From positions 1,621-65,620 of the forward strand of contig JAGVFW010000002.1 of the NCBI GenBank assembly GCA_020057405.1: 64,000 bases of DNA. Direction: 5' to 3'. The stretch is from an archaeon (GTDB taxonomy: Archaea; Micrarchaeota; Micrarchaeia; Norongarragalinales; UBA97). The translations under genes and the position numbers were made by a program. Of the stretch, positions 1,522-56,583 are shown one piece after another. How positions within the stretch are numbered: the first letter of the stretch is position 1; every line of letters begins with the position of its first letter. The notes beneath the pieces are model-generated. The model had not been told where the DNA came from. It did not search any database and saw only the letters and a list, made by a program, of their open reading frames with translations.

Positions 1522-2850
1522 ATGCGTTTTGACGGAAAACTCCTCCTCGCCCTGCTGCCTTTCCTGGCATTATGCGCCTACTCACTGACATTCAACGGCC
1601 ACGTGATGGACGAGTACACTTACATTCTCATGGCCCGCTCGTACGCGGCCAACGACTTTTTCAACGCTCCCGACCAAAGCAGGTTCCCGGCATTCCCATT
1701 TGCCTTGTCCCTAGTCTACCGAGTTTGGGACGGCGGGCTCCTCGCGGGCAGGCTCTTGGGTATTCTCTTTGGCCTGGCGGCGCTCGTGCTCGTCTATTCG
1801 ATGGGCAAGAAATTTTTCGGCGAGGAAGCGGGCTTTTGGGCAACCGCCCTGCTCGGCGCAAGTCCGGTCTTCGCGTTCTTTTCAGACAAAGTGCTTAGCG
1901 AGCCCATGTTTATCGCCTTGCTCGTCGCCTGCGCGTGGCTTGTCGTGAAGGCAGGTGAGGACCGCAAGTGGTTAATCGCCATTGGCGCAAGCGTTTCACT
2001 TTTGGTGCTAACGCGCTTTTTCGGCCTCTACCTCGCCCCAATCGCCCTCCTCTACTGGTGGCGGCGCGGGCAACTTCAAATCCTAGCCTCAACGGAATTT
2101 GCCATCGGCATTCTTGCCTTCCTCGCCGTCTCTGCACCGTGGCTGGCGTTTAGCACGGCAATCACGGGTAATCCGATTGGCCTTCTGCGCGAGTTCTTCT
2201 CAAGCAACGTGATTTTTGAGCAGGGCGGATTTGCCCTCGCCGACCGCATCCCGAGTTACTTGCTGCTAGCACCATTCATTGCCGGCGCAGCAATTGCCCT
2301 CATACTACTTTACCCCAAGCGCGTCTTTGCCGAAGTCTCAAGCGGCCCGGGCTTCATCGCACTGGCATCCGCAGTTGTCATTGCCGCGTCCCTTGAAGTC
2401 CACGGCTTTTTGCAGTTCCGCCTCCTGCGCTATCTCGTGCCGGCAGCACCCTTCGTCGCCTTGATTGCGGGCGCCGGGGCAGTTGCACTTGCGAAGAAAG
2501 GCAAGCCGCTTATCGGCAAGGCTGTCTCCTGGCGCTGGCTGCCGATTGCGCTTTTGGCCGCCAACTTCATTGCAGCCCTCATGGTGATGCACATATTTGG
2601 CGGCCTTGACAAGTACTCGGGTTACCACGAAGTCGGCGTCTTCGCCGCGGCAAACTGCCAAAGCCACTATTCTAACATCGAGCGCGTGCTCCAAGTGTAT
2701 TCCGGCAAGGCCCAAGTACCAATCGGGCAGGCCGACTGCGCGGTTGAAAGCAAGTTTAACCCGAACGTCGTTGGCGCAAACTTTTCCGCCGGCAGGGAAC
2801 TAATTTACAGCAACAAGGGAATGAGCGTCTGGAGGCTCAAGCATGCCTAG
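1522..2850 (+). CDS. polytopic GT-C glycosyltransferase, PMT/ArnT-like (GT39/GT83-type), probably Dol-P-sugar dependent
   Basis: 442 aa with more than 10 predicted TM segments. A conserved DE motif follows TM1 ('GHVMDEYTYILMARSY'), as in ArnT 'DETRYAEIARE' and Pmt 'DEVHF'. Its 3' end overlaps the downstream GT2 gene by 8 nt. Confidence 0.55.
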   Translation: MRFDGKLLLALLPFLALCAYSLTFNGHVMDEYTYILMARSYAANDFFNAPDQSRFPAFPFALSLVYRVWDGGLLAGRLLGILFGLAALVLVYSMGKKFFGEEAGFWATALLGASPVFAFFSDKVLSEPMFIALLVACAWLVVKAGEDRKWLIAIGASVSLLVLTRFFGLYLAPIALLYWWRRGQLQILASTEFAIGILAFLAVSAPWLAFSTAITGNPIGLLREFFSSNVIFEQGGFALADRIPSYLLLAPFIAGAAIALILLYPKRVFAEVSSGPGFIALASAVVIAASLEVHGFLQFRLLRYLVPAAPFVALIAGAGAVALAKKGKPLIGKAVSWRWLPIALLAANFIAALMVMHIFGGLDKYSGYHEVGVFAAANCQSHYSNIERVLQVYSGKAQVPIGQADCAVESKFNPNVVGANFSAGRELIYSNKGMSVWRLKHA

Positions 2851-3508: not shown

Positions 3509-3510
3509 AG

Positions 3511-5696: not shown

Positions 5697-5697
5697 A

Positions 5698-11391: not shown

Positions 11392-11393
11392 TG

Positions 11394-13559: not shown

Positions 13560-16307
13560 CTAGGTGATGATGTCCTTTCGGGTGGTGTTGCCTGGTGAGT
13601 AGCCTATGGTTGTGGCCCATGAGGCGCTGTTGTTTGCGCGTAGTTCTAGCGTCTTGCTGTAGTCGGTGAAGTTTCCTTGTACGTCGAAGAGGCCGTATTG
13701 GCCTGTTGTGGTGACGTTGAACGTGCCTTTCATAACGCCTCCGATGTAGGCGGTTACGCTTGTGATTAAGTTCGCGTTGGCGCCAGTGAAGTAACCATAG
13801 ACCGTCATCGGTTGTGTGATTGTACCTGATTCCACGGAGTACCCTGGGCTGAAACTTACGGTGACGTTTTGCAGGAACGCCGTGTAGTTTTCGTTTACTG
13901 TACTGAATTTGGCTCGGTATTGGAGAAGTTTTCCGCTTACTACGGGTATGCTTAGGTTGCCTCCGTAGTATTCTTGGGAGAAGGTACTCCAGTTGCTTTC
14001 TAGTCCGCCGTTTCCAGCGGGGTTGCCAGAATTGTAGAGGGAGATTATTTCGGCTTCCGTGAGGGTTCGGTTCCATGCTTTAATGTCGTCAAGCGAGCCT
14101 TGGTAGTAGGATGAGGTTGTCCTGGCTTTTCCGAATGTTAGGGTGGTCGTGCCTTGCATTAGCCGGTACTGGTTGGTGCCGGAATTGAACGTCAGGCGAG
14201 TGCCGTTAATGTAGATTGCCCAGCCGCTTTGGTTTAGGAGTATTGTTACCATGCGCCACTTTCCGTCGTTGGGTAGGGCGCCTTCGTTAGTTACGGGGGT
14301 TACTCCCGTTGAGTTGACCAGGTAGTAGGTTAGCTGCAGGTGGCCTGTTCCGTTGACTGAGGCGGAGAATGCTTTGTTGCTGCTGTCGACATCTTGTCCT
14401 ACGAACATTGTTCTTGTGGTGTCTGAGCTTGATTGGCTTGGTTTCATCCACATGTTGATGGTGAGGTTGTCTGTGCTGACGTTGAAGAGTTGCTTTTCTG
14501 TGTCGATGAACGTTTGGCCGGCGGGGTAGAACGTGAGGCATTGTCCGATTACGCAGGTGCTAGTATTTAGGGTAAGGTTGCCGTAGAGTTTGCCGTTGGT
14601 CGTGTTTCCGGACAAATCGAGGGTCTTGTTGGTTACTGCTTCGTTGTCGCTTGAGTCGCCTAGGTCCCACCAGCCGGCTAGGGCGGTGTCGTTGAATAGG
14701 TAGGTCTTGGTTCTGAGTGCCAGGCTTACGTTGGTGAAGTTGTGGATGTATCCGCGGTTTCCTCGTCCGGTTGAGTCTTTTTCCCATTTGTAGACTTGGT
14801 TGACTTCGGAGTCAGTGAGGCTTCGGTTCCAAATGTGGAGTTCGTCTATGCTGCCGTTGAACGCGCGTGTGCAGGGAACGGCGTTTGAGTCGCAGCCGAC
14901 GTAGAGGTTGTTTACTGGTTTGCCGATTGTGATTGCCGCGACTGCGTTTACGGTTGAGTCGAGAGTTCCGTTGATGTAGTACCTGACTTTTCCGTCGGTT
15001 TTGCCGTAGGTCATTACGACGTGGACCCAGTTGCCGGTGTCGACGTTGGCGCTGGATGGTGGACAGGTTCCGCCGCTTACTCCGTCGTTTAGGTAGCAGG
15101 CTAGTTTGCCTGCTCCGTTGAAGCCCACGCCGAATAGCCATCCTGCGTAAGTTCCGTAGTCGTTGAATCGGCCTATTACTTCTGCTGGCGTTGAGACTGT
15201 TTTTATCCAAGCCATTACCGTGAAGTTGTTGAATCCTTCTGTGCTGTCTTTGTCGGTTACGTTTATGAAGTCTTTTTCTGAGCTGTTGTAGTTGTAGCAT
15301 CCGCCGATTATGCAGTCGTTGTTGTATGTGGGTTTGCCTGTGACGACTGATGAGAGGAAGCCGCTGTTGTTGAAGCGCGTTGAGTCGTGCGAGTCGTTCT
15401 CAAAGTGCATGCTCATGACGGCGTTGTCTATGGTGCTTAGTCCCATTGGCTCGTACCAGGCCCAGCTGACGGCGTCGATGTTGTCTGGCGTGTCGCGGTT
15501 TAGGACGAGTATTCTGCTGTAGTATGTTCCGTTGCCTGTAAAGGTTTGTTGGGTTGGGTAGTATGTGCCGTAGACGCTTTGGCTTTGAGCAGTTTGAGTA
15601 TTGTTGAACGCTCCGCTGGTGAATGTGTTGGCGCCAAAGTGGTCGACTGTGGGGTCTAGGAATAGCTGGTATCCCGGCTCTAGATGCGTGCCAGCATTAA
15701 AGTTAGTTAAGACGATACGGTAGGTGTTTCCTTCTTGTTCTTCTCTTGCCGTAAGTTGGTATCTGTTGGCCGCGTTTAGTATGTCGGAGAAGCTCCAGAC
15801 GTCGTAGTCGGAGTAGGTGCTAGTGTGTCCTGCTTCGTTTATTCCTTTGTAGTCTATTGGGAAGGTTACTGAGCCTGTGCCTGTTCGCATGAGTGGTTGT
15901 GTTGAGGTAATCTCGATTGTCAGGTTTGAGATGGACGTGAGGGTGTACGTTCCGGGGTTGAGTGTGGCTGTGAAGTTGAATTTGTAGGCTTGGGTGTCGG
16001 GCGAGTCGCCGCTTATTGAGCGGGTTTGGCCGTTTTCGGCTAGGATGTCGCGGGTGATTTGGCTTTTTGGTTTGTAGTAAGCGTCGCCTTGGAGGTATTG
16101 GGGTGGGATTGGTTGGCCGTTTATCTTTATGGCGACGGTTGCAGTGTACTCTGGTGAGGTGAATTGCACGCCTATTGGGGTTGTTTGGATTGTTGAGCCG
16201 CGGAAGCCGCGGGCTATGGCGTCGGCGTGTGCTATGGGGGTTATGAGGAAAAGTCCTACTAGGGCGACGGCCAGTAGGCGTAGCCATCTGGCGTGGTTTT
16301 CGTTCAT
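13560..16307 (-). CDS. secreted surface protein with two LamG/concanavalin-A-like lectin domains, extremely rich in N-X-S/T sequons (predicted N-glycoprotein)
   Basis: Signal peptide 'WLRLLAVALVGLFLITPIAHADA'. 'IDELHIWNRSLTDSEVNQVY' and 'LDDIKAWNRTLTEAEIISLY' are LamG_3-type signatures. About 35 sequons in roughly 915 aa. The start is taken at ATG 16307, preceded by a GGGAGAG Shine-Dalgarno-like element. The track ORF reaches 16442. Confidence 0.75.
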   Translation of the reverse strand: MNENHARWLRLLAVALVGLFLITPIAHADAIARGFRGSTIQTTPIGVQFTSPEYTATVAIKINGQPIPPQYLQGDAYYKPKSQITRDILAENGQTRSISGDSPDTQAYKFNFTATLNPGTYTLTSISNLTIEITSTQPLMRTGTGSVTFPIDYKGINEAGHTSTYSDYDVWSFSDILNAANRYQLTAREEQEGNTYRIVLTNFNAGTHLEPGYQLFLDPTVDHFGANTFTSGAFNNTQTAQSQSVYGTYYPTQQTFTGNGTYYSRILVLNRDTPDNIDAVSWAWYEPMGLSTIDNAVMSMHFENDSHDSTRFNNSGFLSSVVTGKPTYNNDCIIGGCYNYNSSEKDFINVTDKDSTEGFNNFTVMAWIKTVSTPAEVIGRFNDYGTYAGWLFGVGFNGAGKLACYLNDGVSGGTCPPSSANVDTGNWVHVVMTYGKTDGKVRYYINGTLDSTVNAVAAITIGKPVNNLYVGCDSNAVPCTRAFNGSIDELHIWNRSLTDSEVNQVYKWEKDSTGRGNRGYIHNFTNVSLALRTKTYLFNDTALAGWWDLGDSSDNEAVTNKTLDLSGNTTNGKLYGNLTLNTSTCVIGQCLTFYPAGQTFIDTEKQLFNVSTDNLTINMWMKPSQSSSDTTRTMFVGQDVDSSNKAFSASVNGTGHLQLTYYLVNSTGVTPVTNEGALPNDGKWRMVTILLNQSGWAIYINGTRLTFNSGTNQYRLMQGTTTLTFGKARTTSSYYQGSLDDIKAWNRTLTEAEIISLYNSGNPAGNGGLESNWSTFSQEYYGGNLSIPVVSGKLLQYRAKFSTVNENYTAFLQNVTVSFSPGYSVESGTITQPMTVYGYFTGANANLITSVTAYIGGVMKGTFNVTTTGQYGLFDVQGNFTDYSKTLELRANNSASWATTIGYSPGNTTRKDIIT

Positions 16308-16318
16308 TTTTCTCTCCC

Positions 16319-19300
16319 TCATTCGCTTAATCTCAACTCGCTTGTGACCGTGCTGTTTACGTAAATCCAGTAGCCGATTCCGGCTTCCATTCTCTTTAGG
16401 GTATTGAATGTCGAGTCCAAAGTCGGGTCGTAGGTTAGCCACTTTCCTGACGATTGGTTGTAGGCTTGTACTTTGGTGAAGTTGCTGGAGAGGTTTGCTA
16501 GCGCGTCGCTTGTGGCTCTGCCTTCGTATGGGTAGGCGAACATGTTCCAGCCGTGCGGGAATTGTAGTGTGGTGCTTGTTGGTCTAAAGCCGTTGTCTGT
16601 CATGAATGTGGCGTTTACGTTCATGAGTATCCAGTACCCTTCGCCGATGGAGAATTTGGATAAGGTTTGGAAGGATGAGCTGACGCTCGTGTCGTAGGTG
16701 AGCCATTTTCCTTGGGTTGCGTTGTAGGTTTGTATTTTAGTGTAATTTTCGTTTATTGGTGAGAGTACGCCTGTGATGTTTGCGTTTGTTGGCAGTACCA
16801 TGAATGAGGCGAGGTTCCAGCCTTTGGTGAGGTTGAGTCTCCAGACGTAGAGGTAGCCGGTCGAGTAGTTTTTGCTCGTGAGGTATGAGTTGTTGGCGCT
16901 GCACCAGATGTAGTACTTGCCTACTGGCCAGCTTCTGATGTCGCAGTTTCCTGCTCCGTCGTTTGGCGTGTCGCTAAAACAGGTTTGATTCTTGTTGAAG
17001 CTAGAGTTAGTAGAGTCGCCATAGCAACTGATGCTCAGCGTTAAGTTAGTTGGATCAGAGGCGCCATAGTAGATGTCAGTTGGCGCTCCCGTCACATAGG
17101 GCACTGAAGGTTCACTCAGCGTAATCGTAGGTGCACCGTACTGGTCGCTGAGGTTGATGCTCGTAGCCGTTAATCTGCCGTTGCTGGGATTGATGTAGGT
17201 CGTATATGTTTTCGTGCCGTTTGTTGTAGCGTTAAGTATCCACGTAGCTGACCTTATGTTAAAACCACCTCCGTACTTTATGTCGCCAAGATTGATGCTT
17301 GTGTTTCCAGGCCCGTAAGTTACGGTAACAGCGTCTTGCCGCGTAACTCGCATTCCTAAAACGCTCACTCCAGCTGGAGGGACGAAATCCATGAAAACGC
17401 TTGACGACATGTACTGCTGGGTGTTTGCAGAGGTTGTTATTTCAAATGGCTTTCCTACGGTTATAACCGAAACATTAGCCGTTGAGTGGAGAACAACTTC
17501 CGGTCTCAATTCGCCTCGGATAATCATATAGCCAATAACGAGGTTTCCCATAGTATCTGGAGTAGTACTAAAAGTGCAGGCCTTCAACTCTGTTGTGCCA
17601 CTAGGCGGGTTATCAATCGCCACGTACTGCTTATTATCAAAAGACTGAACTGAATCGTTCGTACCGGTTTGGCATAATCCCCCTGTCGCTCCAGGATCAA
17701 CGTATAGGCCAATATCGTTCCATACTGCCTTTGAATTCCCTACGTCGGCTGCTTTTTCACTCCAGGCTAGTACTACAACTAAGCGTTTGACGCCGCTAGG
17801 GAGGGTTAGGTTATACCTGAAAGCGCCACTGCCTCCGGAGACATTGCCAAAAAGAAGACCAGATTGCCATCCTGTCGGATCATTCGCTTGAAAGTGTGCA
17901 AGAACCGAGTCGACCTTCCCTGCACCAAAGGTGTTCATGAAATCCCGTCCAACGGTTTGGCTTAGATCGATCTTAGTTGAATTTAGGGGTATGGCACTCA
18001 TCATCAACAAAGCTTTAACCGCGGAAGCGTTGCCTTTCAACCAAGGATAATGATCCATCAAAGTCGCCACGACGCCGGCCACTGCGGGTGCAGCAAAACT
18101 AGTTCCCGAATCGGTTGTATAGCCCCCTGTCGTTGAATTTGCGGCAGTAATCAAGTAGCCGGGTGCGCTTATGTCTGGTTTAGTGCGATTATCTGGTGTA
18201 AATCCTCGGCTTGATTCATTATCGATGGTATCCCCCGAATTATTTCCGTTATCAAGAATGCTTCCGACAGTTATGGCGTTTTTAGCGCAGTTAGGTGCAT
18301 AGTTAATCGTTTGGAACGCAGGCCCATTATTAGCTGCTGAAATTACGTAAGTTTGGTTCTGAAAATAAGTTGCGTTATCTAAAGCCCTACTTACTGGATC
18401 CGTGCCGCAAACACCGCTAAGTAACCCGGCGGTATCGCTTATCGATACTAGGGTCGGATAAGGTGTGGTGTTTGAAATCCAACCTATATAGTAGGCTAAG
18501 CTGTGGTTGTCAGATTGATAAAGTGCGAAGGTAAGGTTACTAATTCCTGGCGCTATTCCTAAGTATTTTTGATTGCTAAGATTTCCTCTGCCAAGGAGGA
18601 TGCTTGCGACAAATGTCCCGTGGCTCTGATTTGATTGCACATAAGCCGCAGAGGCACATACTCCATTTGGACAAAGTGAGTTAGTATAGTTAGGTAAGTC
18701 TGGAAACGTGTTGTTATAGTCTAGATCTATTATGCCAACTGAAACGTTCCTTCCGTCATAGCGGAGGGGATTACCATCGAGATTAATGTTTCCTCTAAAA
18801 TAATCAGCACTAACTGCAGAGCTAGCCAGATTCATCGTTGGTTGACCGTGTTCTAAATCGAGTTCGACGTATACTACTTCGTTTCTATTGGCCATATTAC
18901 TTATTGATGCGAGTGGAATTTCGGCATGGTAGGCACTAATTATTGGAAGGTACGTTAGGGAATTGACTTCGATGGATTTTAGGTAGTTTTCTAAGTCTGA
19001 TTCAGCACCCCTGAATGGAGTAATGTATACTTTGACTTTCTCCGAAAGATCTGCTTTTGTTTTAATCATCTCGTAAAGTCCCGGAGTCATTTTTTGATTT
19101 TGTCGATTAACTCCGACCCACCTTACGAACGGAAGAGTTTGTAATCTGCTTAGGTCACTTAGTGGAATTTTTGCAAGTATCGAGTGATATGTGTGGTAGC
19201 CAAGAAAGACGGTGCCTTCTTGTTCGATAATTTTAAGCTTTTCTTTATCGATGCTATCGTTCACCATAATGAAGCCATAGAAATAGGGTTTTCCCGTTAC

Positions 19301-19561
19301 GTCGATCACAGATGAAATTTCAGAATCAAGTTTGACGGAAGGGTCCGGCGTATATTGTACGTTATCGAATACTAGAGAATACGGTTCAGTTCTTCTGTTT
19401 ACGTTATTTGCTGTGATTTCTTCTTGCGTTAATGGTTCTGCTTTTAAGTAGCCTAGAGCAATATCTTGGACGGCAGGTTCAAGATTATTTGAAAATTTGC
19501 TAAGGGCATTAACTGACGTAAATAAAATAAGTGCAATGGCCAAGATGGCAAACTTCCTCAT
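16319..19561 (-). CDS. secreted subtilisin-like serine protease (peptidase S8) with a long C-terminal multi-domain extension
   Basis: Signal 'MRKFAILAIALILFTSVNALS'. Catalytic triad motifs present: 'VGIIDLD' (Asp), 'HGTFVASI' (His), 'GTSFAAPAVAGVVATL' (Ser). Many N-X-S/T sequons. Low-GC gene. Confidence 0.85.
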   Translation of the reverse strand: MRKFAILAIALILFTSVNALSKFSNNLEPAVQDIALGYLKAEPLTQEEITANNVNRRTEPYSLVFDNVQYTPDPSVKLDSEISSVIDVTGKPYFYGFIMVNDSIDKEKLKIIEQEGTVFLGYHTYHSILAKIPLSDLSRLQTLPFVRWVGVNRQNQKMTPGLYEMIKTKADLSEKVKVYITPFRGAESDLENYLKSIEVNSLTYLPIISAYHAEIPLASISNMANRNEVVYVELDLEHGQPTMNLASSAVSADYFRGNINLDGNPLRYDGRNVSVGIIDLDYNNTFPDLPNYTNSLCPNGVCASAAYVQSNQSHGTFVASILLGRGNLSNQKYLGIAPGISNLTFALYQSDNHSLAYYIGWISNTTPYPTLVSISDTAGLLSGVCGTDPVSRALDNATYFQNQTYVISAANNGPAFQTINYAPNCAKNAITVGSILDNGNNSGDTIDNESSRGFTPDNRTKPDISAPGYLITAANSTTGGYTTDSGTSFAAPAVAGVVATLMDHYPWLKGNASAVKALLMMSAIPLNSTKIDLSQTVGRDFMNTFGAGKVDSVLAHFQANDPTGWQSGLLFGNVSGGSGAFRYNLTLPSGVKRLVVVLAWSEKAADVGNSKAVWNDIGLYVDPGATGGLCQTGTNDSVQSFDNKQYVAIDNPPSGTTELKACTFSTTPDTMGNLVIGYMIIRGELRPEVVLHSTANVSVITVGKPFEITTSANTQQYMSSSVFMDFVPPAGVSVLGMRVTRQDAVTVTYGPGNTSINLGDIKYGGGFNIRSATWILNATTNGTKTYTTYINPSNGRLTATSINLSDQYGAPTITLSEPSVPYVTGAPTDIYYGASDPTNLTLSISCYGDSTNSSFNKNQTCFSDTPNDGAGNCDIRSWPVGKYYIWCSANNSYLTSKNYSTGYLYVWRLNLTKGWNLASFMVLPTNANITGVLSPINENYTKIQTYNATQGKWLTYDTSVSSSFQTLSKFSIGEGYWILMNVNATFMTDNGFRPTSTTLQFPHGWNMFAYPYEGRATSDALANLSSNFTKVQAYNQSSGKWLTYDPTLDSTFNTLKRMEAGIGYWIYVNSTVTSELRLSE

Positions 19562-19659: not shown

Positions 19660-21114
19660 TTAGTGTACTGGCGTAAAGTAAAAAATTTGAAATTCTTTTT
19701 TACCATTTTTATCTATTAAGTTAATGGAGCATGTCTGATTAGAATTCGGATTTAAATTTCGTGGGGCAAATTTGCTCTGAAATTCAAACTGGTTTTCCTC
19801 TGTAAAGTTGTAGTTAAAAATAGGGGGATATTCATCGAGTGGAAAGCTGTAACCATTGTTTCCAGAATTATCGGTGCAATTTCCTGAAATCCATTCTTCG
19901 TCATTAGTGCTAGTATTGCTAATGATGTATAGATCTATAGGGTGCGGCGGAACATCAACGCAGCTATGGACTCCAGTTAGATTATAGTCAAATTTCAATG
20001 CTGGCGTGCCATTGTCGAGAAATAAATCTGAGAAACCACAATTTTTTAATCCGTATTCGGGATATGTGCTAATTGATATGCAGTAATTCTGAATAATTTT
20101 TGCGACTCCGCTTTCATTTACTTGGGTGCATCTTTGTTGTAGGGTTTGTTGTCTCCAGTCTGGTTCGGGTTTGTTCCAGTTGTTGGGCTCAGTTTCGTGA
20201 TAGGTGAAGTTAAGTGCTAGTTTTGTTTCACTATTTTCGTTCACTTCGAGGGCGCAAGCGTATTGGGTCGTGTTCCATTCTTGGTTTCCTTGGGTTGGGC
20301 GTAAGAGCCAGTATGTGAATGAGCGTGAGGCGTCAAGGGGGCAGTTGTCTTTTTCGAAGTGGGCGTAGGTCGTCGTTGTTTCTGGCGAGGTGCATTTGAC
20401 GGTTATGTTGGCGTTTGCTTGGTGGTCGGAGTAGATTTTGAAGCTTTGCCAGTGAGAGTTGGCAATTAGTCGGGCGTTTTCGAATGGTGCAGTGAACTGG
20501 GTTCGGCATATGTTTCCGATGCAATTCCACGGCCAGATTGAACTCCGGTCGTTTAAGTCAATCTGACTCCAGTTGATATTAATCGCAAAGTTTGTCTGCG
20601 GGTCAGAAGTTAAGTGTGAATAGCTAGAATCTAAGTCGCGTAGGTAGAGGCAGTAGCCGTTCTGAAAGAAGGCCAGTCCAGTTTCGTTTGCTAGGCCGTG
20701 GCATTGCGTTTCCGTTAAGTCGGCAATCTCGCTTCGGTCAACTAGATAGAAGTTTACTCCGTTGGGGTTGCTGTCGGGGCCAACTGTGAGGCCACAGTTA
20801 GTGGGATTGCGTTCAGGGCCTTGCTGCTCGCTTGTACCGTAACCGAGGCCTATATCGTTAGGTCCTCCGTTGCCACCCGAACCTGGGGTTGGAGTTGGCG
20901 TGACTTCTGGCGTTGGAGATGGTGTAGGTGACGGCGTGGCTGTAGGTTCGGGTGTGGGAGTTGGCGTGAGTGTGGTGTTTGATGAGCTGCCGTCAGTGTC
21001 GTTAAAGCCGCCGCCAAAGGTGTGTATGGTTTTGGAAACTTCTTCTATGCAGCCAGCAAAAATTAGTGCAAAAGATAGCGCAACTGCGCAAAATGCCAAA
21101 ACACTCAGTTTCAT
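19660..21114 (-). CDS. secreted Cys-rich protein with an N-terminal lipobox-like signal and a Pro/Thr-rich linker
   Basis: 'MKLSVLAFCAVALSFALIFAGCIEE' looks like a signal peptide with an [LI]-[AF]-A-G-C lipobox. It is followed by 'TPTPTPEPTATPSPTPSPTPEVTPTPTPGSGGNGG'. About 20 Cys in the C-terminal domain. Very low GC. Confidence 0.6.
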   Translation of the reverse strand: MKLSVLAFCAVALSFALIFAGCIEEVSKTIHTFGGGFNDTDGSSSNTTLTPTPTPEPTATPSPTPSPTPEVTPTPTPGSGGNGGPNDIGLGYGTSEQQGPERNPTNCGLTVGPDSNPNGVNFYLVDRSEIADLTETQCHGLANETGLAFFQNGYCLYLRDLDSSYSHLTSDPQTNFAININWSQIDLNDRSSIWPWNCIGNICRTQFTAPFENARLIANSHWQSFKIYSDHQANANITVKCTSPETTTTYAHFEKDNCPLDASRSFTYWLLRPTQGNQEWNTTQYACALEVNENSETKLALNFTYHETEPNNWNKPEPDWRQQTLQQRCTQVNESGVAKIIQNYCISISTYPEYGLKNCGFSDLFLDNGTPALKFDYNLTGVHSCVDVPPHPIDLYIISNTSTNDEEWISGNCTDNSGNNGYSFPLDEYPPIFNYNFTEENQFEFQSKFAPRNLNPNSNQTCSINLIDKNGKKEFQIFYFTPVH

Positions 21115-24152: not shown

Positions 24153-24236
24153 TCTATAATCCAGTCAAGAATATATATTCAAAAGCTGTAATTGTTTTGC
24201 AAGGCAAAACCGGTCTTGCAACTTAATGGTGGAATT
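24153..24236. promoter_or_regulatory. AT-rich divergent intergenic region with TATA-like elements serving GT2 (23169-24143, -) and GT2 (24237-24983, +)
   Basis: 'ctctataatcc' and 'gaatatatattc' sit in an otherwise 60% GC context. Archaeal TATA-box-like. Confidence 0.4.
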
Positions 24237-24983
24237 ATGTACGGCAAGCACAAAGTCATCGTAGTCATGCCCGGCCACAACGTCGAGCGCACGCTCAAGC
24301 GCACTTACGACGAGGTCATGGCGCAAAAAATCGTCGACAAAGTAATTCTAGTCGATGACGGCAGCACGGATAGGACTGCAGCCATCGGCAAGACGCTCAA
24401 GTCCGTGCAAGTCATTTCACACCCGAAGAACCGCGGCTACGGTGCTGCCCAAAAGACGGGCTACAACGCGGCCCTGAAGGCTGGTGGCGACATTGTCATC
24501 ATGGTCCACCCCGACTACCAGTACACGCCTAAACTCATTCCGCCACTGACGGCACTTTTGGCGACAGGACTCTACGATTGCGCCCTTGGCTCGCGCATCA
24601 TCGGCGGCCACCCCCTAAGCGGCGGAATGCCGCCCTGGCGCTACGTCTCAAACCGCCTCCTAACATTTTTTGAAAACGTCATGATGGGTTCGAAACTCTC
24701 GGAATTCCATTCAGGCTACCGGGCCTTCACGCGCAAACTACTGCAAACGGTTCCCTACAATCGGTGCTCGGATGACTTTGTTTTTGACAACCAGATGCTT
24801 GCGCAAATTCTCTGGTCGGGCCTCAACATTGGGGAAGTCACTTGCCCGACTCTCTATTTCGAGGAAGCTTCCTCAATGAGCATCAAGAAAAGCGTAAAGT
24901 ACGGCGTGGGCTGCGTTGAGACCGCGCTTACCTACCGGCTTGCCAAGCTGGGCCTCGCCGGCTCGTCCCTCTACAGCCGCTAA
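24237..24983 (+). CDS. GT2 dolichyl-phosphate hexose synthase-like
   Basis: 'HKVIVVMPGHNVERTL...VILVDDGSTDRTAAIG' is DPM1/Alg5-like. The start is taken at ATG 24237; the track ORF begins at 24192. Immediately upstream of a GT-C membrane protein. Confidence 0.75.
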   Translation: MYGKHKVIVVMPGHNVERTLKRTYDEVMAQKIVDKVILVDDGSTDRTAAIGKTLKSVQVISHPKNRGYGAAQKTGYNAALKAGGDIVIMVHPDYQYTPKLIPPLTALLATGLYDCALGSRIIGGHPLSGGMPPWRYVSNRLLTFFENVMMGSKLSEFHSGYRAFTRKLLQTVPYNRCSDDFVFDNQMLAQILWSGLNIGEVTCPTLYFEEASSMSIKKSVKYGVGCVETALTYRLAKLGLAGSSLYSR

Positions 24984-25022
24984 AGTCGCCTGCTTAAATT
25001 CCAGCGCCGGCAAAACAACTTA

Positions 25023-26465
25023 ATGGACAAGAAGTTCGCCGCGTTCTTCGTCGCGGCAGTGCTCGTTTACGCTTCAGTTGCCATTTTCTACCCGCTAGTC
25101 GGCGACGAGCAGATTCACGGCTACTTCGCGCGCTGGACTGCCGAGCATATGCAGTTGCCCATCAGCCAGAAAGTAAACGGCCTGCTTTGGTACCACTACC
25201 CGCCCGCCTATGCAGTCGTGGCAGGCTTCTTCGTCAAGCTCTTCTCCGGCTTAATCGGCGCGATTCTTTCCGCCCGCATCTACGCCTTCATCGCATCGCT
25301 TGCAACATTCGTCCTCGTCTACAAGTTCGTCACCAAGCGGCTGCCGCAGGCTGATACGACTATTCTTCTTGCCTACCTAGTCGCCTCGCCGTTTCTCTCA
25401 AGCAACGCCGGCATTGCCACAATCACTCCGCTAGGCCTGCTAACTAGTTTTGCGACAATCTACTTGCTCTACGAGTTCTTCGACAAGCCGACGACTCGCA
25501 GCGCGCTTTTGCTTGCTGGCGCACTCGCCGCGGCACTCCTCACACACTACTACCTCCTGACGCTGCCTCTTGCAATCCTCGCCGCCGCCTATTTCAACCG
25601 CGAGCGCGTCAACTGGCGGTTCCTCATCGGCGCCCTCGCCCTCGGCTGCGCGGTAGGTGGTTCGTTCTACGCCTACAACCTCATCACCTACGGCCAGTTC
25701 GGCGGCCCTAGCTCGTCAACAATCGGCCAGCTCGTCTCGCCCTTTGACCCAGGCTGCGTCTACATCGACGGTTGGCTAAGCGGGCTTAACGGATTTGTGC
25801 ACTTTGACGACTCTTTTGCCCGCATTGACGGCCGCCTCAAGTTTCTGCCAATCTCGACAAAGTGGCTCTGGAGCGCCGGAATCGCCTTCCTCTACCTGCT
25901 CATCGCAGCCGGCGCGGTTGCAAGCGCAAAGAAAGACCGCGGCCTAATCGCAATTGCATTCATTTCCCTGCCCACCCTCGTTCTCGGCAACTGCTTCATC
26001 CGCTATTCGGGCGTCCTGCCGTTGCTCTTCGGTGTGTTCCTCACCATCGGCGTAAACGCAGTCGGCCCGAAGCTGGAAAAGCCAGTCAAGGTAGTCGTGC
26101 TCCTCCTCCTTGCAGTACTGCTAGTGCAGACGTTCCTCACCATGCAGGGCGTACGGGAAAGCAAGGTTCCAATTTACGATTTCATCAAGGCAGTGCCCGA
26201 CCGCGTTGACGCGAAAGACTTGTGTTTCTTCTCGCACCCTGGCGAGCCGATTTCAGTTCTTGCGACGCTGCTTACCAACCAGGAAATCCAGCCCTGCCAC
26301 GACGGCGGCTATACTACAAACGTCCTCGTGCTCAAGGACCTGCGCACCTTTGAACGCGACTACACGCCTGAAGACCTGGCAAAACTCAACAACGATTACG
26401 TGCTAGTCGATTCGCAAAAGGGCGGGGACAACGAAATCGCCCTCTACAAGCTCAAAACCGGCTAG
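25023..26465 (+). CDS. polytopic GT-C glycosyltransferase, PMT/ArnT-like
   Basis: 480 aa, about 12 TM segments. DE motif after TM1: 'FYPLVGDEQIHGYFARW'. Confidence 0.55.
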   Translation: MDKKFAAFFVAAVLVYASVAIFYPLVGDEQIHGYFARWTAEHMQLPISQKVNGLLWYHYPPAYAVVAGFFVKLFSGLIGAILSARIYAFIASLATFVLVYKFVTKRLPQADTTILLAYLVASPFLSSNAGIATITPLGLLTSFATIYLLYEFFDKPTTRSALLLAGALAAALLTHYYLLTLPLAILAAAYFNRERVNWRFLIGALALGCAVGGSFYAYNLITYGQFGGPSSSTIGQLVSPFDPGCVYIDGWLSGLNGFVHFDDSFARIDGRLKFLPISTKWLWSAGIAFLYLLIAAGAVASAKKDRGLIAIAFISLPTLVLGNCFIRYSGVLPLLFGVFLTIGVNAVGPKLEKPVKVVVLLLLAVLLVQTFLTMQGVRESKVPIYDFIKAVPDRVDAKDLCFFSHPGEPISVLATLLTNQEIQPCHDGGYTTNVLVLKDLRTFERDYTPEDLAKLNNDYVLVDSQKGGDNEIALYKLKTG

Positions 26466-26515
26466 CCCGTCAGCCTGACGCAATTTATTACCCTGAAAGC
26501 AGTAAGGTTTTCACA

Positions 26516-27456: not shown

Positions 27457-29025
27457 TTATTTTCTCTTTAGTATCGTGTAATTGCCGAACTGCGTTACCG
27501 GCGCGAAGTCCTTGCCGATGTAGTTGTACAAGTCGCCCTCAAATTCCGTCACGTAGCACCTGTCGACCTTGCTCATCGGCGAGGTGATGGCAAACTGCGC
27601 GTTGCTTGTGCGAATGTCGTTGATTATCTCCGCCTGCACTGCCGGTGCGCTTGTGATGCCCGGGTAAAGCTGGATGTACGACGATGCCGGGTCGTGGCCG
27701 GTAACCAAATAGAACGAGGCGGCCCCGCTTGCGACGTAAATCTCCTCACCCGGCGCAGCATTTGCACTAATGTATTCGGTAGCCTGCTTGAAATCGTCAA
27801 TCTGGCCCTTTGGAATAGTCATGCCAGCGAACTTTTCAGTCGGCCCAAGGTAGTCGCGGTAAGTGAATGCGACAAGGCTTGCCCCGAGCAAGGCGAAAAA
27901 CGCAAGGTACGCAAACGCCGCGAGGGCAAGCGCCTTTTTGCCACCAGTCGCCTTGGCAAAGCCACCCGCGAGCTTGTAGAGCAGGTAAGCGGCAATGATG
28001 TATGCAAGAAGCATGCTGAAAATCAGGTGGTTGCGGTCTGTGCGGGGATAGACGACCATGTGGAACTGGAAGAGCGCGACTAAAGTTGCAAGCAGCAGCG
28101 TCTTGCCCTCGACTTTGGAGAGCAGCGTGCGGTTGCGGTAAAGGTAGTAGAGCGCAGCGAAGTAGACGAGCAGGACCGCATAGTAGACTGAGTTGATTGC
28201 CGAGCGGTAAACGGATTCAATCGCGAGGCTGGGCGGGATGAGTGAGGCGACTGTCGGGAACGGCAGGCCCCAGCACTGGTGGCTGCCCTGCGTTGCCGAG
28301 CGCACCACCATCATGTCGTACATTCCGGTAAACGAGTTTGTTGCTGTAAAATACCCGACCGTGAGGAGCGGAATGACTGCAGCGGCGGCGAAGAAGAGCT
28401 TGCGGTCCCACAACTGGCCGACAACCGCCTTGACTTTCGGCCAGTTCTTGGCAAGTGCAGTGATTGCAAAATAGACGGTAATTCCCGCAAGCGTGTATGC
28501 GCCGACGTTCTGCTTGAAAAACGCGCTCGCTCCAACAGCGAAGCCGGCCAAAAGCAAGTGGCGCAGCTTGCCTGACTCCTCATTTCGGATTATGAAGTAA
28601 ACCGCGAGGACTTGGAAGAATACTGCCGGCCAGGTGGGCGTCGTGTAGTGCTGGAAGGGAATGCCCCAGATGAGCAAAAGAACCGGGGGCAAAAGCGCGT
28701 AAGGATGCGGCACCAAACGCCGTGCAATGAGGTAGAGGAGCGCGCCTGCGGAGGCGGCAAAGAGCGCCATGATGATGCGGGCGAAAAGAATCTCGTTTGG
28801 CGCAAAGAGGACGTGGACAAGGGCGCCGATTAGAAAGACGCCGGGCGTATAGATGTTCCGCACTTGAGTGTAGAGCACTTCGCCCTGCGAAATCAGCTTT
28901 CCGCTAAGGAGCGCCTGGCCCTCGTCGGTGCCGTCAAACATCTTGTCGACGAAGAACGCTGAGAACGCCAGGGACGCGACTAGCACTAGGAGAGCGACGA
29001 CGACAGGTCTGGAGCCAAGGTCCAT
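27457..29025 (-). CDS. polytopic GT-C glycosyltransferase, PMT/ArnT-like
   Basis: 522 aa, multi-TM. DE motif in the first loop: 'FVDKMFDGTDEGQALLSGKL'. Confidence 0.55.
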   Translation of the reverse strand: MDLGSRPVVVALLVLVASLAFSAFFVDKMFDGTDEGQALLSGKLISQGEVLYTQVRNIYTPGVFLIGALVHVLFAPNEILFARIIMALFAASAGALLYLIARRLVPHPYALLPPVLLLIWGIPFQHYTTPTWPAVFFQVLAVYFIIRNEESGKLRHLLLAGFAVGASAFFKQNVGAYTLAGITVYFAITALAKNWPKVKAVVGQLWDRKLFFAAAAVIPLLTVGYFTATNSFTGMYDMMVVRSATQGSHQCWGLPFPTVASLIPPSLAIESVYRSAINSVYYAVLLVYFAALYYLYRNRTLLSKVEGKTLLLATLVALFQFHMVVYPRTDRNHLIFSMLLAYIIAAYLLYKLAGGFAKATGGKKALALAAFAYLAFFALLGASLVAFTYRDYLGPTEKFAGMTIPKGQIDDFKQATEYISANAAPGEEIYVASGAASFYLVTGHDPASSYIQLYPGITSAPAVQAEIINDIRTSNAQFAITSPMSKVDRCYVTEFEGDLYNYIGKDFAPVTQFGNYTILKRK

Positions 29026-45515: not shown

Positions 45516-45965
45516 TTATGCTATTCCAAACCCAAAAAATGTTTTTAGGAAGTCGAGTATTGAATCTAACGTGCTGCGTTGTCTTTGTTGTTCCTTTTTT
45601 ATTTCTTCAACTTCTTGGCGCAGTTGTTTTGTTTCTGATTTTGGAATAGGCTCGTAGGTAACCGTGGGAGTTGGCGTATTAGAGACTGATGGCGCGGGTT
45701 CCATTGTTGGCCTTGATGTAGGTGAAGGAACCGGCGTACTAGTGGCTGATGGTTTCGGTGTTGGCGAAGCTGGCTGTAAAGTTGATTTTCCATTCAGACA
45801 ATATTCGTTATCTGGGCACTGGGAACAATAGCCCCAATCTCCACACGTATAACTTCCACTGTCAGAAATGCAGCTGTGCCACCTATGGCAGCCATTCTGG
45901 TGTGCTAAAGAAAAGGTTACGAAAATCAAGAGTAGCGCTAAAATTACTTTTCTTAGGATAGTCAT
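45516..45965 (-). CDS. small secreted Cys-rich protein with a PT-rich linker and a charged C-terminal helix
   Basis: Signal 'MTILRKVILALLLIFVTFSLA', then 8 Cys in 40 aa, 'PTPKPSATSTPVPSPTSRPT...', and 'LRQEVEEIKKEQQRQR'. Locally low GC. Confidence 0.5.
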   Translation of the reverse strand: MTILRKVILALLLIFVTFSLAHQNGCHRWHSCISDSGSYTCGDWGYCSQCPDNEYCLNGKSTLQPASPTPKPSATSTPVPSPTSRPTMEPAPSVSNTPTPTVTYEPIPKSETKQLRQEVEEIKKEQQRQRSTLDSILDFLKTFFGFGIA

Positions 45966-48260: not shown

Positions 48261-51200
48261 GTGGGTTTAGTGGTCGATACTTTAGTTCTTGCTATCTCGG
48301 TCATTCTCTTCGCAATTCCGGGCATTTTCCTCTCGGCAGCGCTATTTCGGCGAACGTCGCTTGACTGGCTTGAGAAGGGGTTACTTGGTGTAGTCTTAAG
48401 CTGCGTGGCAATGCCCGTGCTTGCCATCCTCGAGCTCGTCTTTTTCGCAATCAAGTTCAACGGCATGCTGCTTTTCGCCAACTTCCTTCTCCTGGTACTC
48501 GTCGCCATCGTCGCCTACGCTTACCAGGGAATGCCAAAGCTAGAGTTTCACCGCCCGCGCATACCATTCCTTGACGGAAAGTTTGAGTGGGAAAAGGACA
48601 AGAATCTAGTCTTCGGCGCGGTTCTGTTAATCCTGCTGCTCATTACCTTCTGGGTCAGGTTCGCACCCGCCTGGGCGGATAACTTTTTTGAGTTCGACCC
48701 TATTTTCTACAGCCACGTTACGGAAATACTGGCGAAGAACGGCGTCATCCCTGCCGAGTCAAGCGAAGTTTACTACCCGCTGACGAAAGACCTGCGTGTT
48801 TACCCTATTGTGCCCTACTTGGGGGCGCATATTTACGCGATTTACCACGCGATTGTCGGCGGCCCGTTCATCAAGTCAGACTTTCACTTAGTCATCGAGA
48901 TTTACCCGCCCCTTATGGCAATACTCACTTCATTTGCAGTCTACCTGCTCTTCCGCCGGCAGGCGAATGACTGGATTGGCCTGATAGCGGCTGGCACGCT
49001 GGCGACAATGCCGCAGCTAGTCAGCAAGTTCGGTGCAGGTGTCAACGAACTGCAGCCGTGGGGCCTCTTCAGCGCCGTTTTCGTCATCGCAGCCACCTTC
49101 CTTGCAATGTCGCAAAAGAGCTACCGCTTCGCAGTCTTGGCCGGCATCGGACTCTTCGGAGCCATGCTTGGCACGGCGCAGGGCCTCTGGCCTGCAGCAG
49201 CAATCGCCTCTTTCTTCCTGCTTCACGCGCTCGTTTCCTACCTTCGCGAGGAGTTAGATTTCCGTGCGGTCGCCATTTACGCCATCATCGCCCTTCCGGG
49301 AGTCCTCGGCGCGCTCTTGTTTAACTTCTACCGCTCGGGCCTGACGCTCGGAATTGGCAACCTGATGTCGAATGCAGGTGCGTTGTTCAAACTCGGCACA
49401 CTCCAGTACCTGCTTATCGCCGCAGTTGCAGTCGCCGTGTTCCTGCTTGCAGTTCAGCAGTTCGTCCTGCCCAGGCTAAGGCAGGTCACGCCTCACCCGA
49501 AGCCCGTCAGCGTTGCTGCAATGCTGATTGCGCTGGCAATAGTCTTCATCGCAGTCCCGGCTGTTCCCGGCATGCTCGGCGATTTTCTCAACAGTTCCGC
49601 CGGCTTTGCCCGACAGGGGAGTGCCCTGGGCATGACGATTGCAGAGGAAAACGCGACCACGCCCGGCCTGTACTTCGGCGCGTTTGGCAACATCAATCCC
49701 GATGTCCTCCTTCCTGCCGCCGCGCTTCTAATCTCCCTCTTCGCGTTCATCAAGCTCTTGATTGCCGGTAGACGGATTGCGGCTGGCGCTGTTGTATTGG
49801 GTGTGCTGCTTATCACGGCGTTCAACTCGTTTACCGACTCGATGCTTTTGTGGGTTGCCAACAACCTGTTGAGCGGCTATTCGCTTTTCACGCAGTTTGT
49901 CACCGGCAACGACTTGTTCGTCTACATGCTTGTTTCCATCATCTCGCTATTGCTTGCCATGCTCCTCGTCAGGGAAGACCCGATTCCGTCGGAGCTTCTC
50001 TACCTCGTCATCGCAATTTTCCCCGTCGCCTACATCGGCTTAAACAAGCTCAAGTTCATGCCGCACCTGGCACTTGCCCTGGCAATCGCGTTCCCGTTCG
50101 CCCTCTCTATGGGCCTCAAAATCATCCAGACGCTCTCGACCGAGCTTAAGGGCGAGAGTGGCCGCAAGATTGCTGTGAAGGCCGGCCTTGCCCTCATCGT
50201 CATCATCGGCGGTCTAGTGCTTTACGCGCAGTCAAACACGCTTGACAACTCAATGGCAGGCCTGCAGTACACCCGCATCTCGAGCGACTGGCTGTCAAGC
50301 TACGAGTGGATGCGCACGGCACCCTCGTTTGACAAGTCATTCTGCACCAACACTTACGGTTACGACTGCCGCGTGCTCTCATGGTGGGATTACGGCCACT
50401 GGACTACGTTCTTCGGCGAGCAAAAGAGCGTGCTTGACCCCGGCAACCGCTATCCTGACTTCAACCAAGGCACGGCAAGGGCTTTTGTCCAAGGCAACAT
50501 CACTGACCTGCTTTACACCGTTCGCTACCACCAGGCGACGCACATTCTTGCCGACGCGCAGCTAGTGCAGAAGTGGGGCGCACTCGTGTTCCTAAGCGGC
50601 ACGTGCGCGCACTCGCAGTACGCAACCTGTCCAGAGAAGCCCGAGATTGACTACAAGAACGGCGCCGGCAGAAGCACTTACGAGGCCGAGCACTACTTCG
50701 AGTTCCTCACGAGTTCCGGCACCTGCCCAGCGCAGTTGACCGGCGTGGCGTTACCCGCATTCAAGAGCAGCCTGACGAACGCCGTCTACTGCTTTACCGA
50801 CACGGAGTACCTGCTTTTGACTTCGCAGGGCATCGACCCGAACTTCAAGCGCAAGTACAAGATAATCGGCCGCGACACTGTCGACGCCGCGCGCCTAGAG
50901 AAGGACACGGCTTACCTCTTCGGCTACACGCAAGGCCAGTTCATCAACGTGAACCCCGACCTCACCTACGTCGGCCTGAACAACACGGTCATCGACTCGG
51001 CCTTCACGCGCCTCTTCTTCTTCGAGTACATGCCTGGAATGCAGCTTGACCACCGCTCGCCAAGCGGCGAAGTAAAGATATTCCGCATCCTACCGGAGTT
51101 CATCAGCGGCTCTACAATCGCAAGCAGCAGCAACTTAGCGTCGACGCCAAGCCCGACTCCGATACCCTCGGCAACTCCCGAGCCAACGCCGAGTGCAAAC

Positions 51201-51320
51201 GAGACTGGAACTAACCTGACCTCATCAAGCCCCACTCCTTCGGCTAGCTCGTCAGTAACGCCGAGCCCAACGCCGGCGCCTTCAACAAGCCCGACGCCCG
51301 TTCCCTCGCCCACGCCATAG
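48261..51320 (+). CDS. aglB: archaeal oligosaccharyltransferase AglB (STT3 homologue) with a C-terminal Pro/Thr/Ser-rich tail
   Basis: About 13 N-terminal TM segments. The diagnostic 'WWDYGHW' (in 'CRVLSWWDYGHWTTFFGE') sits in the C-terminal soluble domain. The final about 65 aa are 'PSPTPIPSATPEPTPS...SPTPVPSPTP'. Confidence 0.9.
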   Translation: MGLVVDTLVLAISVILFAIPGIFLSAALFRRTSLDWLEKGLLGVVLSCVAMPVLAILELVFFAIKFNGMLLFANFLLLVLVAIVAYAYQGMPKLEFHRPRIPFLDGKFEWEKDKNLVFGAVLLILLLITFWVRFAPAWADNFFEFDPIFYSHVTEILAKNGVIPAESSEVYYPLTKDLRVYPIVPYLGAHIYAIYHAIVGGPFIKSDFHLVIEIYPPLMAILTSFAVYLLFRRQANDWIGLIAAGTLATMPQLVSKFGAGVNELQPWGLFSAVFVIAATFLAMSQKSYRFAVLAGIGLFGAMLGTAQGLWPAAAIASFFLLHALVSYLREELDFRAVAIYAIIALPGVLGALLFNFYRSGLTLGIGNLMSNAGALFKLGTLQYLLIAAVAVAVFLLAVQQFVLPRLRQVTPHPKPVSVAAMLIALAIVFIAVPAVPGMLGDFLNSSAGFARQGSALGMTIAEENATTPGLYFGAFGNINPDVLLPAAALLISLFAFIKLLIAGRRIAAGAVVLGVLLITAFNSFTDSMLLWVANNLLSGYSLFTQFVTGNDLFVYMLVSIISLLLAMLLVREDPIPSELLYLVIAIFPVAYIGLNKLKFMPHLALALAIAFPFALSMGLKIIQTLSTELKGESGRKIAVKAGLALIVIIGGLVLYAQSNTLDNSMAGLQYTRISSDWLSSYEWMRTAPSFDKSFCTNTYGYDCRVLSWWDYGHWTTFFGEQKSVLDPGNRYPDFNQGTARAFVQGNITDLLYTVRYHQATHILADAQLVQKWGALVFLSGTCAHSQYATCPEKPEIDYKNGAGRSTYEAEHYFEFLTSSGTCPAQLTGVALPAFKSSLTNAVYCFTDTEYLLLTSQGIDPNFKRKYKIIGRDTVDAARLEKDTAYLFGYTQGQFINVNPDLTYVGLNNTVIDSAFTRLFFFEYMPGMQLDHRSPSGEVKIFRILPEFISGSTIASSSNLASTPSPTPIPSATPEPTPSANETGTNLTSSSPTPSASSSVTPSPTPAPSTSPTPVPSPTP

Positions 51321-56091: not shown

Positions 56092-56583
56092 TCACGCCTC
56101 GACGTAGACGATGCCGTTCCCTGCAATCCCGACGCCATCGTGGTACTCAAACTTGCCGGCCGTGTTAAACGCGCGGCTCCATGACTGGCCCCCTCCAAGA
56201 TTGTGCGAATCGAATTCCTCGCTGCTGCCGGCATCGCTCTTGATGTCGTGCAGCCGGCCGTCCTGGTTTTGCCAAGTCACTTTAGTGCCCGCCTTGACCC
56301 AGATGGCCCGCGGATTGAAGCCCGCATTCACAATCAACACGGTGTCGGTGCCGATGACTCCCGGAATCTCGTGCGGCGCTGGTGTAGGAAGCGGAGTCAA
56401 AACCGGCGTTGGGGTGGGTACGGGCGTGGCCGTGGGCTCAGGGGTCGGTGGCATTGGCGTGCGGTAAGCTTTTTTGCCAAAAAGCGTGCCCTGAACGTCG
56501 TTGGCCAGATTGTCCACCGTGTACGAAACGCATCCGGCCATGATTATCGCGACAAGCGCCAGTGCAATAAGTGGCTTGTTCAT
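56092..56583 (-). CDS. secreted lipobox protein with a PT linker and a cupredoxin-like domain lacking the type-1 copper ligands
   Basis: 'MNKPLIALALVAIIMAGCVSY' lipobox-like signal, then 'PTPEPTATPVPTPTPVLTPLPTPAP'. The C-terminal 'FNPRAIWVKAGTKVTWQNQDGRLHDI...GKFEYHDGVGIAGNGIVYVEA' parallels amicyanin/halocyanin topology, but the Cys ligand position is Asp. Confidence 0.5.
   Translation of the reverse strand: MNKPLIALALVAIIMAGCVSYTVDNLANDVQGTLFGKKAYRTPMPPTPEPTATPVPTPTPVLTPLPTPAPHEIPGVIGTDTVLIVNAGFNPRAIWVKAGTKVTWQNQDGRLHDIKSDAGSSEEFDSHNLGGGQSWSRAFNTAGKFEYHDGVGIAGNGIVYVEA

Follow-up and report, generated by a model that had tools for sequence, protein, structure and literature searches.

Predicted lipobox lipoproteins on Pro/Thr-rich linkers in a glycosylation island of a Micrarchaeota genome

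Does a genome region crowded with glycosylation genes encode lipid-anchored surface proteins on Pro/Thr-rich (PT) stalks, and does it hold a system dedicated to glycosylating such stalks? The question is raised by a stretch of 64,000 nucleotides of Micrarchaeota contig JAGVFW010000002.1 (the whole stretch is called the window here), and in particular by its open reading frame (ORF) 19660-21114. An earlier note had ascribed a lipobox followed by a PT linker to this ORF, to ORF 56092-56583, and to the small ORF 45516-45965, had described a PT/S-rich tail of about 65 aa on the oligosaccharyltransferase AglB, and had taken the DNA to come from a non-halophilic archaeon. All named ORFs lie at the positions it gave, and the relatives of AglB place the organism, a non-halophilic archaeon, in the Micrarchaeota (DPANN). 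The combination of lipobox and PT linker holds for ORFs 19660-21114 and 56092-56583, but ORF 45516-45965 has the PT linker without the lipobox. Based on sequence features and homologues, we read the former two as surface proteins that are exported via Sec, carry a lipid anchor of the AliA type, and stand on Pro/Thr stalks, with a probability of roughly 0.6.

The target gene (19660..21114, minus strand) encodes a predicted lipobox lipoprotein of 484 aa with 14 N-X-S/T sequons and 16 Cys. Its signal peptide, MKLSVLAFCAVALSFALIFAGC (21049..21114, minus strand), ends in the lipobox F-A-G-C, with the codon of Cys22 at 21049-21051, and is followed by about 20 residues holding two N-X-T sequons, by the 42-aa PT linker GSSSNTTLTPTPTPEPTATPSPTPSPTPEVTPTPTPGSGGNG (20866..20991, minus strand), and by a 401-aa ORFan extracellular domain (19663..20865, minus strand) that is rich in both Cys and sequons. 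The sequon NDT is located just upstream of the linker and the sequon NTT at its start, and the domain formed by the last 401 aa has 16 Cys. A structure model of this domain (predicted local distance difference test score, pLDDT, of 44) consists mainly of beta strands and was too poor for a fold search. Overall, the predicted product is a Cys-rich ORFan surface protein that would be heavily N-glycosylatable.

Because PT-linker words swamp a whole-protein query, the homology search was performed with the C-terminal domain alone. In a search of 1.84 billion representatives, this domain had a sole relative, P0004 (E = 3e-23), and metagenome and viral scans of JGI metagenome contigs and IMG/VR revealed no further relatives of the family. 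P0004 is encoded on L081, a 1.9-kb Logan contig (run ERR11571142, 42% GC), where the homologue spans positions 290-1868 and its gene is split by a frameshift near the junction of …FQNGYCFF and VQDVN. The gene caller had kept just the C-terminal part (P0004), which hid the lipobox. When joined via the frameshift, the upstream ORF reads MITGREALSKGLVLVSLLCLTLVLAGCVEQ and shows the lipobox …LVLAGCVEQ, then an S/T-rich linker, and then the homologous domain. At about 27% identity between the two proteins (tblastn), the linker has the same position and length as the PT linker of the target, while its composition has changed from PT to ST/N and it carries five sequons.

The second lipobox protein (ORF 56092..56583, minus strand, 163 aa) has the signal peptide MNKPLIALALVAIIMAGC with the lipobox M-A-G-C (Cys18 codon at 56530-56532), a 34-aa PT linker without a sequon (56368-56469, minus strand), and a cupredoxin-like C-terminal domain. 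The lipobox Cys is the single Cys of the whole protein. The domain scored slightly above the cut-off for PF00127 (21.9 bits vs. 21.2) and far under the cut-offs of TIGR03102 and the amicyanin models, with weak matches to halocyanin, amicyanin, and plastocyanin, but aligned clearly with metagenomic cupredoxins at 33-41% identity. A metagenome scan retrieved 19 relatives, 16 of them on contigs of high GC content (66-71%; loci L084-L098 and L100), which are probably bacterial contigs from soil. All 16 share a signal peptide of the form …KPLLxAALVALSLGL[AVM]AC that can be aligned with that of ORF 56092-56583, followed by a linker of about 50 aa rich in S/T/E/P and by the cupredoxin domain.

The region of the copper site reads Y[FHY]CEIHPTM in these homologues, which retain the Cys/His/Met site, and YHDGVGIAG in the window protein, in which the position of the ligand Cys is occupied by Asp and the His and Met positions by Gly/Ile/Ala/Asn-type residues. 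With the Cys, His, and Met copper ligands all replaced, a type-1 blue copper protein was ruled out, and ORF 56092-56583 probably encodes a copper-less cupredoxin-like lipoprotein of bacterial ancestry. Halocyanin is the classic lipobox-anchored archaeal cupredoxin, and ORF 56092-56583 has in common with it and other lipobox blue copper proteins (TIGR03102) the succession of lipobox, low-complexity linker, and cupredoxin-type domain, but differs from them in lacking the copper-binding Cys, His, and Met. Its history looks like a transfer between domains of life, followed by the loss of copper binding in the archaeal copy.

Both lipobox proteins start with a basic n-region (MK… and MNK…), which is followed by a hydrophobic stretch of 14-18 residues with the Cys at the end of the h-region. 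Both signals are Sec-type in appearance, with no twin arginine, and positions -2, -1, and +1 of their lipoboxes are canonical. A lipobox census covered every stop-to-stop segment of the window and of 80 Micrarchaeota loci with AglB relatives (1.31 Mb), using a PROSITE PS51257-like rule tightened by additional filters. The census returned 20 matches, mostly short spurious ORFs. Just two genes within the window were found by the filtered rule, and these two were also the only genes in the window and the 80 loci to pass both the lipobox and the PT rules. Credible lipobox proteins elsewhere, all with low-complexity linkers, came from L027, L065, and L001, where …LLLAGC precedes an S/P/T/A-rich run. 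Within the window, two of the approximately seven non-polytopic exported proteins carry a lipobox, a fraction that resembles the 16-26% reported for Micrarchaeota (see below).

In a six-frame scan, PT runs in likely-coding genes were restricted to four cases, namely ORFs 19660-21114, 56092-56583, and 45516-45965 and the AglB tail. PT-linker proteins other than AglB account for three of 57 window genes, compared to about three of an estimated 1,200 or so in the other loci (Fisher p ~0.002). The possibility that the runs are slippage repeats was rejected, as they are not DNA tandem repeats, and so was an origin as opposite-strand gene-calling artefacts, as the opposite-strand ORFs are Gly/Val-rich mirror images. 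Together with the codon usage of the runs, which differs from gene to gene, the absence of tandem repeats indicates that the runs are independent and maintained at the amino-acid level. Conservation in the homologues of both lipoproteins extends to the Cys and to the layout of lipobox, low-complexity linker, and domain, but not to the sequence or composition of the linker. Bacterial cellulases likewise use Pro/Thr linkers as interdomain spacers. The window linkers share the (PT)n composition, the presumed role as an extended spacer, and the unconserved sequence with those of such secreted multidomain enzymes, but they connect a single domain to an N-terminus that would be lipid-anchored or, in AglB, form a free C-terminal tail. 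A further anchored protein on a Pro-rich spacer is encoded at 60393-61145 (minus strand); its 250 aa include 18 Cys and, besides a hydrophobic anchor at the N-terminus, a segment rich in Pro (…KPVALKPVLTPHPTVAPLPGEQ), and it matches no family and has one weak relative in L022.

The third PT protein (ORF 45516..45965, minus strand, 149 aa) is a small secreted protein with a signal-peptidase-I (SPI)-type signal, a six-Cys domain, a PT linker without a sequon (45657-45791), and a GC content at third codon positions (GC3) of 0.35. Its N-terminus reads MTILRKVILALLLIFVTFSLAHQNGC, and its first Cys, in …FSLAHQNGC, is preceded by Q and N at positions -3 and -2 and is the first of the six in the Cys-rich domain. 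Since the motif Q-N-G-C fails the lipobox test and a good SPI site, with cleavage between S-L-A and H, lies upstream, this residue is not a lipobox Cys. The C-terminal segment is charged and helix-like and ends in a short hydrophobic tail. The stop codon of a glucose-1-phosphate nucleotidyltransferase-like gene (45966-46676) directly abuts the start of the ORF.

How would the two lipobox proteins be anchored? The earlier note had considered the enzymes of archaeal lipidation as not known, which is outdated, as AliA (arCOG02177, DUF63) and AliB were identified in 2025 as lipidation components in Haloferax volcanii, with AliA needed for lipidation (PMC12462473). From predictions for 524 archaeal genomes, the same study (Hong et al., Nat Commun 2025, PMC12462473) found lipoproteins to be prevalent in both DPANN and Euryarchaeota. 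The supplement of the corresponding bioRxiv preprint lists several Micrarchaeota metagenome-assembled genomes (MAGs), each with 8-18 predicted Sec lipoproteins, which make up 16-26% of secreted proteins, and a single AliA, while AliB is absent; our locus L017 comes from one of these AliA-bearing MAGs. Lipobox proteins have thus already been predicted in Micrarchaeota, and the two window proteins add examples to a known design. In the model we propose, both proteins would be exported via Sec, after which the lipobox Cys would be thioether-linked to archaeol by AliA (DUF63), the enzyme reported in related Micrarchaeota genomes, and the signal peptide would then be removed. The PT run could serve as an extended, protease-resistant stalk of about 10 nm, a length estimated from general polyproline-II geometry, and would keep the domain off the membrane. 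As in the Haloferax AliA/AliB lipoproteins, the signal peptides end in a lipobox with an invariant Cys; the Haloferax proteins differ in being mostly Tat substrates, whereas the window proteins look Sec-type, have F or M at position -3, and have no AliA gene within the window.

Two candidates for an AliA were rejected. The gene 56580-57314 (minus strand), which overlaps the start of ORF 56092-56583 by 4 nt and is probably co-transcribed with it, encodes a membrane protein of 244 aa, for which about five transmembrane (TM) segments are predicted. It matched no Pfam or NCBIfam family, DUF63 included, and its homologues (40-42% identity) are located downstream of AglB in L002, L021, and L025 with no lipoprotein beside them. 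Likewise, no DUF63 match was found for a putative AliA beside SpoIIM in L082.

Several points weigh against lipid anchoring. With F or M at position -3, both lipoboxes are allowed by the PS51257-type rule but not by the strict consensus [LVI][ASTVI][GAS]C with its Cys at residue 15-35, and no DUF63/AliA protein was detected among the membrane proteins of the 64-kb window. The PT runs are taken for stalks on the basis of their composition, and the foreign or bacterial look of the genes means that the lipoboxes could be inherited relics unprocessed by the host. Moreover, to our knowledge, a lipid on the lipobox Cys has been shown experimentally in haloarchaea only and in no DPANN archaeon. The Cys might then be incidental, with SPI cleaving near A-G-C, which could double as a -3/-1 site of this peptidase, or with an uncleaved N-terminal membrane anchor and no lipid. 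That ORF 45516-45965 is clearly SPI-type and that experimental lipoprotein evidence is confined to non-DPANN archaea would fit such a scenario, as would the departure from the strict bacterial consensus and the lack of an AliA gene in the window. Nevertheless, the h-region of both proteins ends exactly at the Cys, which is kept in the L081 homologue despite the low identity and the different linker, is kept in 16 out of 16 bacterial-type homologues of ORF 56092-56583, and is the only Cys of the cupredoxin-like protein. In addition, AliA and predicted lipoproteins have been reported in Micrarchaeota MAGs. We therefore consider an incidental Cys unlikely.

A different account concerns the origin of the shared architecture, which may be a by-product of horizontal acquisition if surface genes from different donors each brought along a lipoprotein signal and a linker. 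Codon usage is atypical in the target and foreign in character in the target, the neighboring S8 subtilase, and ORF 45516-45965, for which GC3 values of 0.47, 0.47, and 0.35, respectively, compare to about 0.70 in most other window genes, and local GC content drops to 0.36. These values suggest horizontal acquisition of the three genes. The sole relative of the target on a contig of 42% GC, the differing codons of the linkers, and the alignment of the cupredoxin-like protein, signal included, with lipoproteins of high-GC, probably bacterial soil contigs point in the same direction. In contrast, ORF 56092-56583 has a GC3 that is normal for the window, and both its linker and the AglB tail are native in composition. 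We regard this origin as a possibility to be taken seriously, albeit a tentative one, and it is compatible with lipid anchoring, since acquired lipoproteins can still be processed. On this reading, the recurring layout of signal, low-complexity stalk, and domain would stem from a common way of building anchored surface proteins, which arrived from several sources, and not from a dedicated system of this genome.

The immediate neighborhood of the target holds a secreted S8 subtilase (16319..19561, minus strand; 1080 aa, SPI-type signal, 39 sequons, GC3 0.47) and a LamG/concanavalin-like surface protein (13560..16442, minus strand; 35 sequons). The target and these two neighbors reach sequon densities of 2.9-3.6 per 100 aa, whereas densities elsewhere do not exceed 1.3. 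We read the block of target, subtilase, and LamG-type gene as a cassette for surface proteins that is variable and was in part acquired horizontally. It lies inside a large glycosylation island: along with numerous GT2 genes and enzymes for NDP-sugars, the window harbors AglB, a Glycos_transf_4 (GPT-type) gene, and three GT-C enzymes of the PMT_2 family.

Are the PT linkers substrates of these GT-C enzymes? The earlier note had derived a dedicated linker-glycosylation system from the co-occurrence of PT proteins with several PMT-like GT-Cs. The three genes are located at 1522..2850 (plus strand), 25023..26465 (plus strand), and 27457..29025 (minus strand), and their products are predicted to span the membrane 8-9 times; in each, TM1 is followed by a DE motif (MDEY, GDEQ, and TDEG). 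All three match PF13231 PMT_2 only, a catch-all GT-C family, with no match to the true PMT family in the profile search and no relevant sequence match in the PDB, and they are not paralogues of each other. GT-C 25023-26465 had only two homologues in 5.8 billion clusters. Its AlphaFold model, of low confidence (pLDDT 58), matched ALG12, STT3, ALG9, ArnT, and Pmt4 about equally, with the first four ranked ahead of Pmt4 and Pmt1/2 in 43rd place in the fold search. Its orthologues in relatives reside in conserved housekeeping synteny, near neither PT proteins nor glycosylation genes. Directly upstream of one of these orthologues, L082 encodes an AXE1-type esterase (8997-9908, minus strand) with the lipobox …LLVAGC and without a PT linker, and the same synteny is found in L083. 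With matches to PMT_2 only, a generic GT-C fold of the one modelled enzyme, and housekeeping contexts of its orthologues, the dedicated system finds no support, and the general character of this large glycosylation island accounts for the co-occurrence. The "PMT-like" label is a family-name artefact and does not speak for O-mannosylation.

Two of the three GT-Cs are adjoined by GT2 genes, an arrangement also known from ArnC/ArnT or AglD/AglS systems. GT-C 25023-26465 is flanked by GT2 genes on either side (24192-24983 and 26516-27436), forming a GT2, GT-C, GT2 cassette at 24192-27436. The GT-C gene 1522..2850 is the first of a same-strand run of five genes (1522-6633, plus strand) that continues with a GT2 (2843-3508), a UDP-glucose dehydrogenase, a sugar-1-phosphate nucleotidyltransferase, and an NAD-dependent epimerase/dehydratase-family enzyme. 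This gene set resembles the Arn pathway and hints at the transfer, on the outside of the cell, of a sugar of the uronic-acid or pentose type from a dolichol-phosphate carrier. Based on these GT2/GT-C cassettes, some extracellular acceptor probably receives sugars from dolichol phosphate.

One candidate acceptor would be the Thr-rich linkers and the AglB tail, O-glycosylated outside the cell by one or more of the PMT_2 GT-Cs with dolichol-phosphate (Dol-P) sugars from the adjacent GT2s. The archaeal O-glycosylation pathway was described in 2021 as unidentified (PMC8241124), and our literature search found no later report identifying it. The closest mechanistic analogue is mycobacterial Ppm1/Pmt, a GT2 polyprenol-phosphate-sugar synthase with a GT-C that adds hexoses, by O-mannosylation, to the P/T/S-rich N-termini of lipoproteins such as LppX, Mpt83, and SodC, in which a lipobox Cys is likewise followed by a Pro/Thr/Ser/Ala-rich segment (PMC5673659). 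That system is bacterial and combines a diacylglycerol anchor with a true GT39 Pmt, whereas the window has generic PMT_2 proteins and O-glycosylation is only proposed. Besides this precedent, the DE motifs, the PMT_2 matches, and the adjoining GT2 genes speak for O-glycosylation, as do the sequon-free PT linkers of ORFs 56092-56583 and 45516-45965, on which any glycan must be O-linked. These two linkers may be O-glycosylated or may bear no modification at all.

The catch-all nature of PMT_2, the fold-search ranking, and the lack of paralogy among the GT-Cs argue against this proposal, as do the housekeeping surroundings of the 25023-26465 orthologues. Furthermore, the linker of the L081 homologue has S/T with many N-sequons in place of PT, and the co-occurrence in a 64 kb glycosylation island is unspecific. 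AglS is a GT-C-type enzyme, and it offers an archaeal precedent for a Dol-P-sugar transferase encoded in an agl cluster. In Haloferax volcanii, AglD, AglR, and AglS are encoded in the agl cluster near aglB; as with the proposed role of the window GT2s, the GT2 AglD loads dolichol phosphate and the sugar is flipped, but the transfer outside the cell then goes to the N-linked glycan, which AglS finishes, and not to Ser/Thr (PMC3871713). Its likeness to the window GT-Cs is one of gene context. Wherever sequons exist, as in and near the target linker, in the L081 linker, and in AglB tails, N-glycosylation by AglB thus appears to be the simpler, default reading. O-glycosylation of the linkers by these enzymes is improbable on this balance. 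Its more specific form, by analogy to Ppm1/Pmt, in which the AglB tail and the Thr/Ser-rich stalks of lipoproteins in Micrarchaeota would receive their O-glycans from an orphan GT2/GT-C cassette (e.g., 24192-26465), is a long shot, although such a cassette would, if this were true, be the first genetic candidate for the archaeal O-glycosylation pathway.

AglB itself (48261..51320, plus strand), an oligosaccharyltransferase of the AglB/STT3 type, was recognized by its match to PF02516 (E = 1.3e-9) and the motif WWDYGHW with the WWDYG core. Its Pro/Ser/Thr (P/S/T) tail proved to be real, with a length of 66-69 aa (51120-51317, plus strand) and two sequons, NET and NLT. As the next gene begins 68 nt further on and on the opposite strand, the tail is truly terminal. 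The 80 best AglB relatives among one-genome-per-species GTDB contigs, at 22-56% identity, belong nearly all to Candidatus Micrarchaeota/Micrarchaeia. Low-complexity P/S/T/A C-terminal tails of 26-83 aa are present in 19 of about 45 complete Micrarchaeota AglBs (those of the window and of loci L001-L006, L009, L013, L015, L017, L021, L024, L025, L032-L035, and L046), several of which end in runs like NATNATNQTNAS. The tail is a trait of the clade of this AglB. Sequon density reaches 7.3 per 100 aa in AglB tails, compared to 0.42 in the body of the window AglB, and by this enrichment Micrarchaeota AglB appears to carry its own substrate tail. We know of no description of such a sequon-packed substrate tail on AglB.

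Two further ORFs inside the glycosylation island, one of 695 aa with some 12 predicted TM segments (9592-11679, minus strand), whose 5' end overlaps the next gene so that its start is uncertain, and one of 170 aa with about three (35750-36262, minus strand), lacked any Pfam match at a threshold as lax as E = 1 and might act as flippase, polymerase, or GtrA-like components. Scans of the window for tRNAs and Rfam families were empty.

Taken together, the window offers concrete, well-delimited predicted lipoproteins in a DPANN archaeon, in one of which the lipobox is conserved despite being attached to an ORFan domain, in line with the 2025 finding that archaeal lipoproteins and AliA extend beyond haloarchaea. 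The most useful by-product of the analysis is the sequon-rich C-terminal tail on many Micrarchaeota AglBs. Were O-glycosylation of the stalks shown, the GT2/GT-C cassettes would be obvious candidates for an open problem of archaeal biology.

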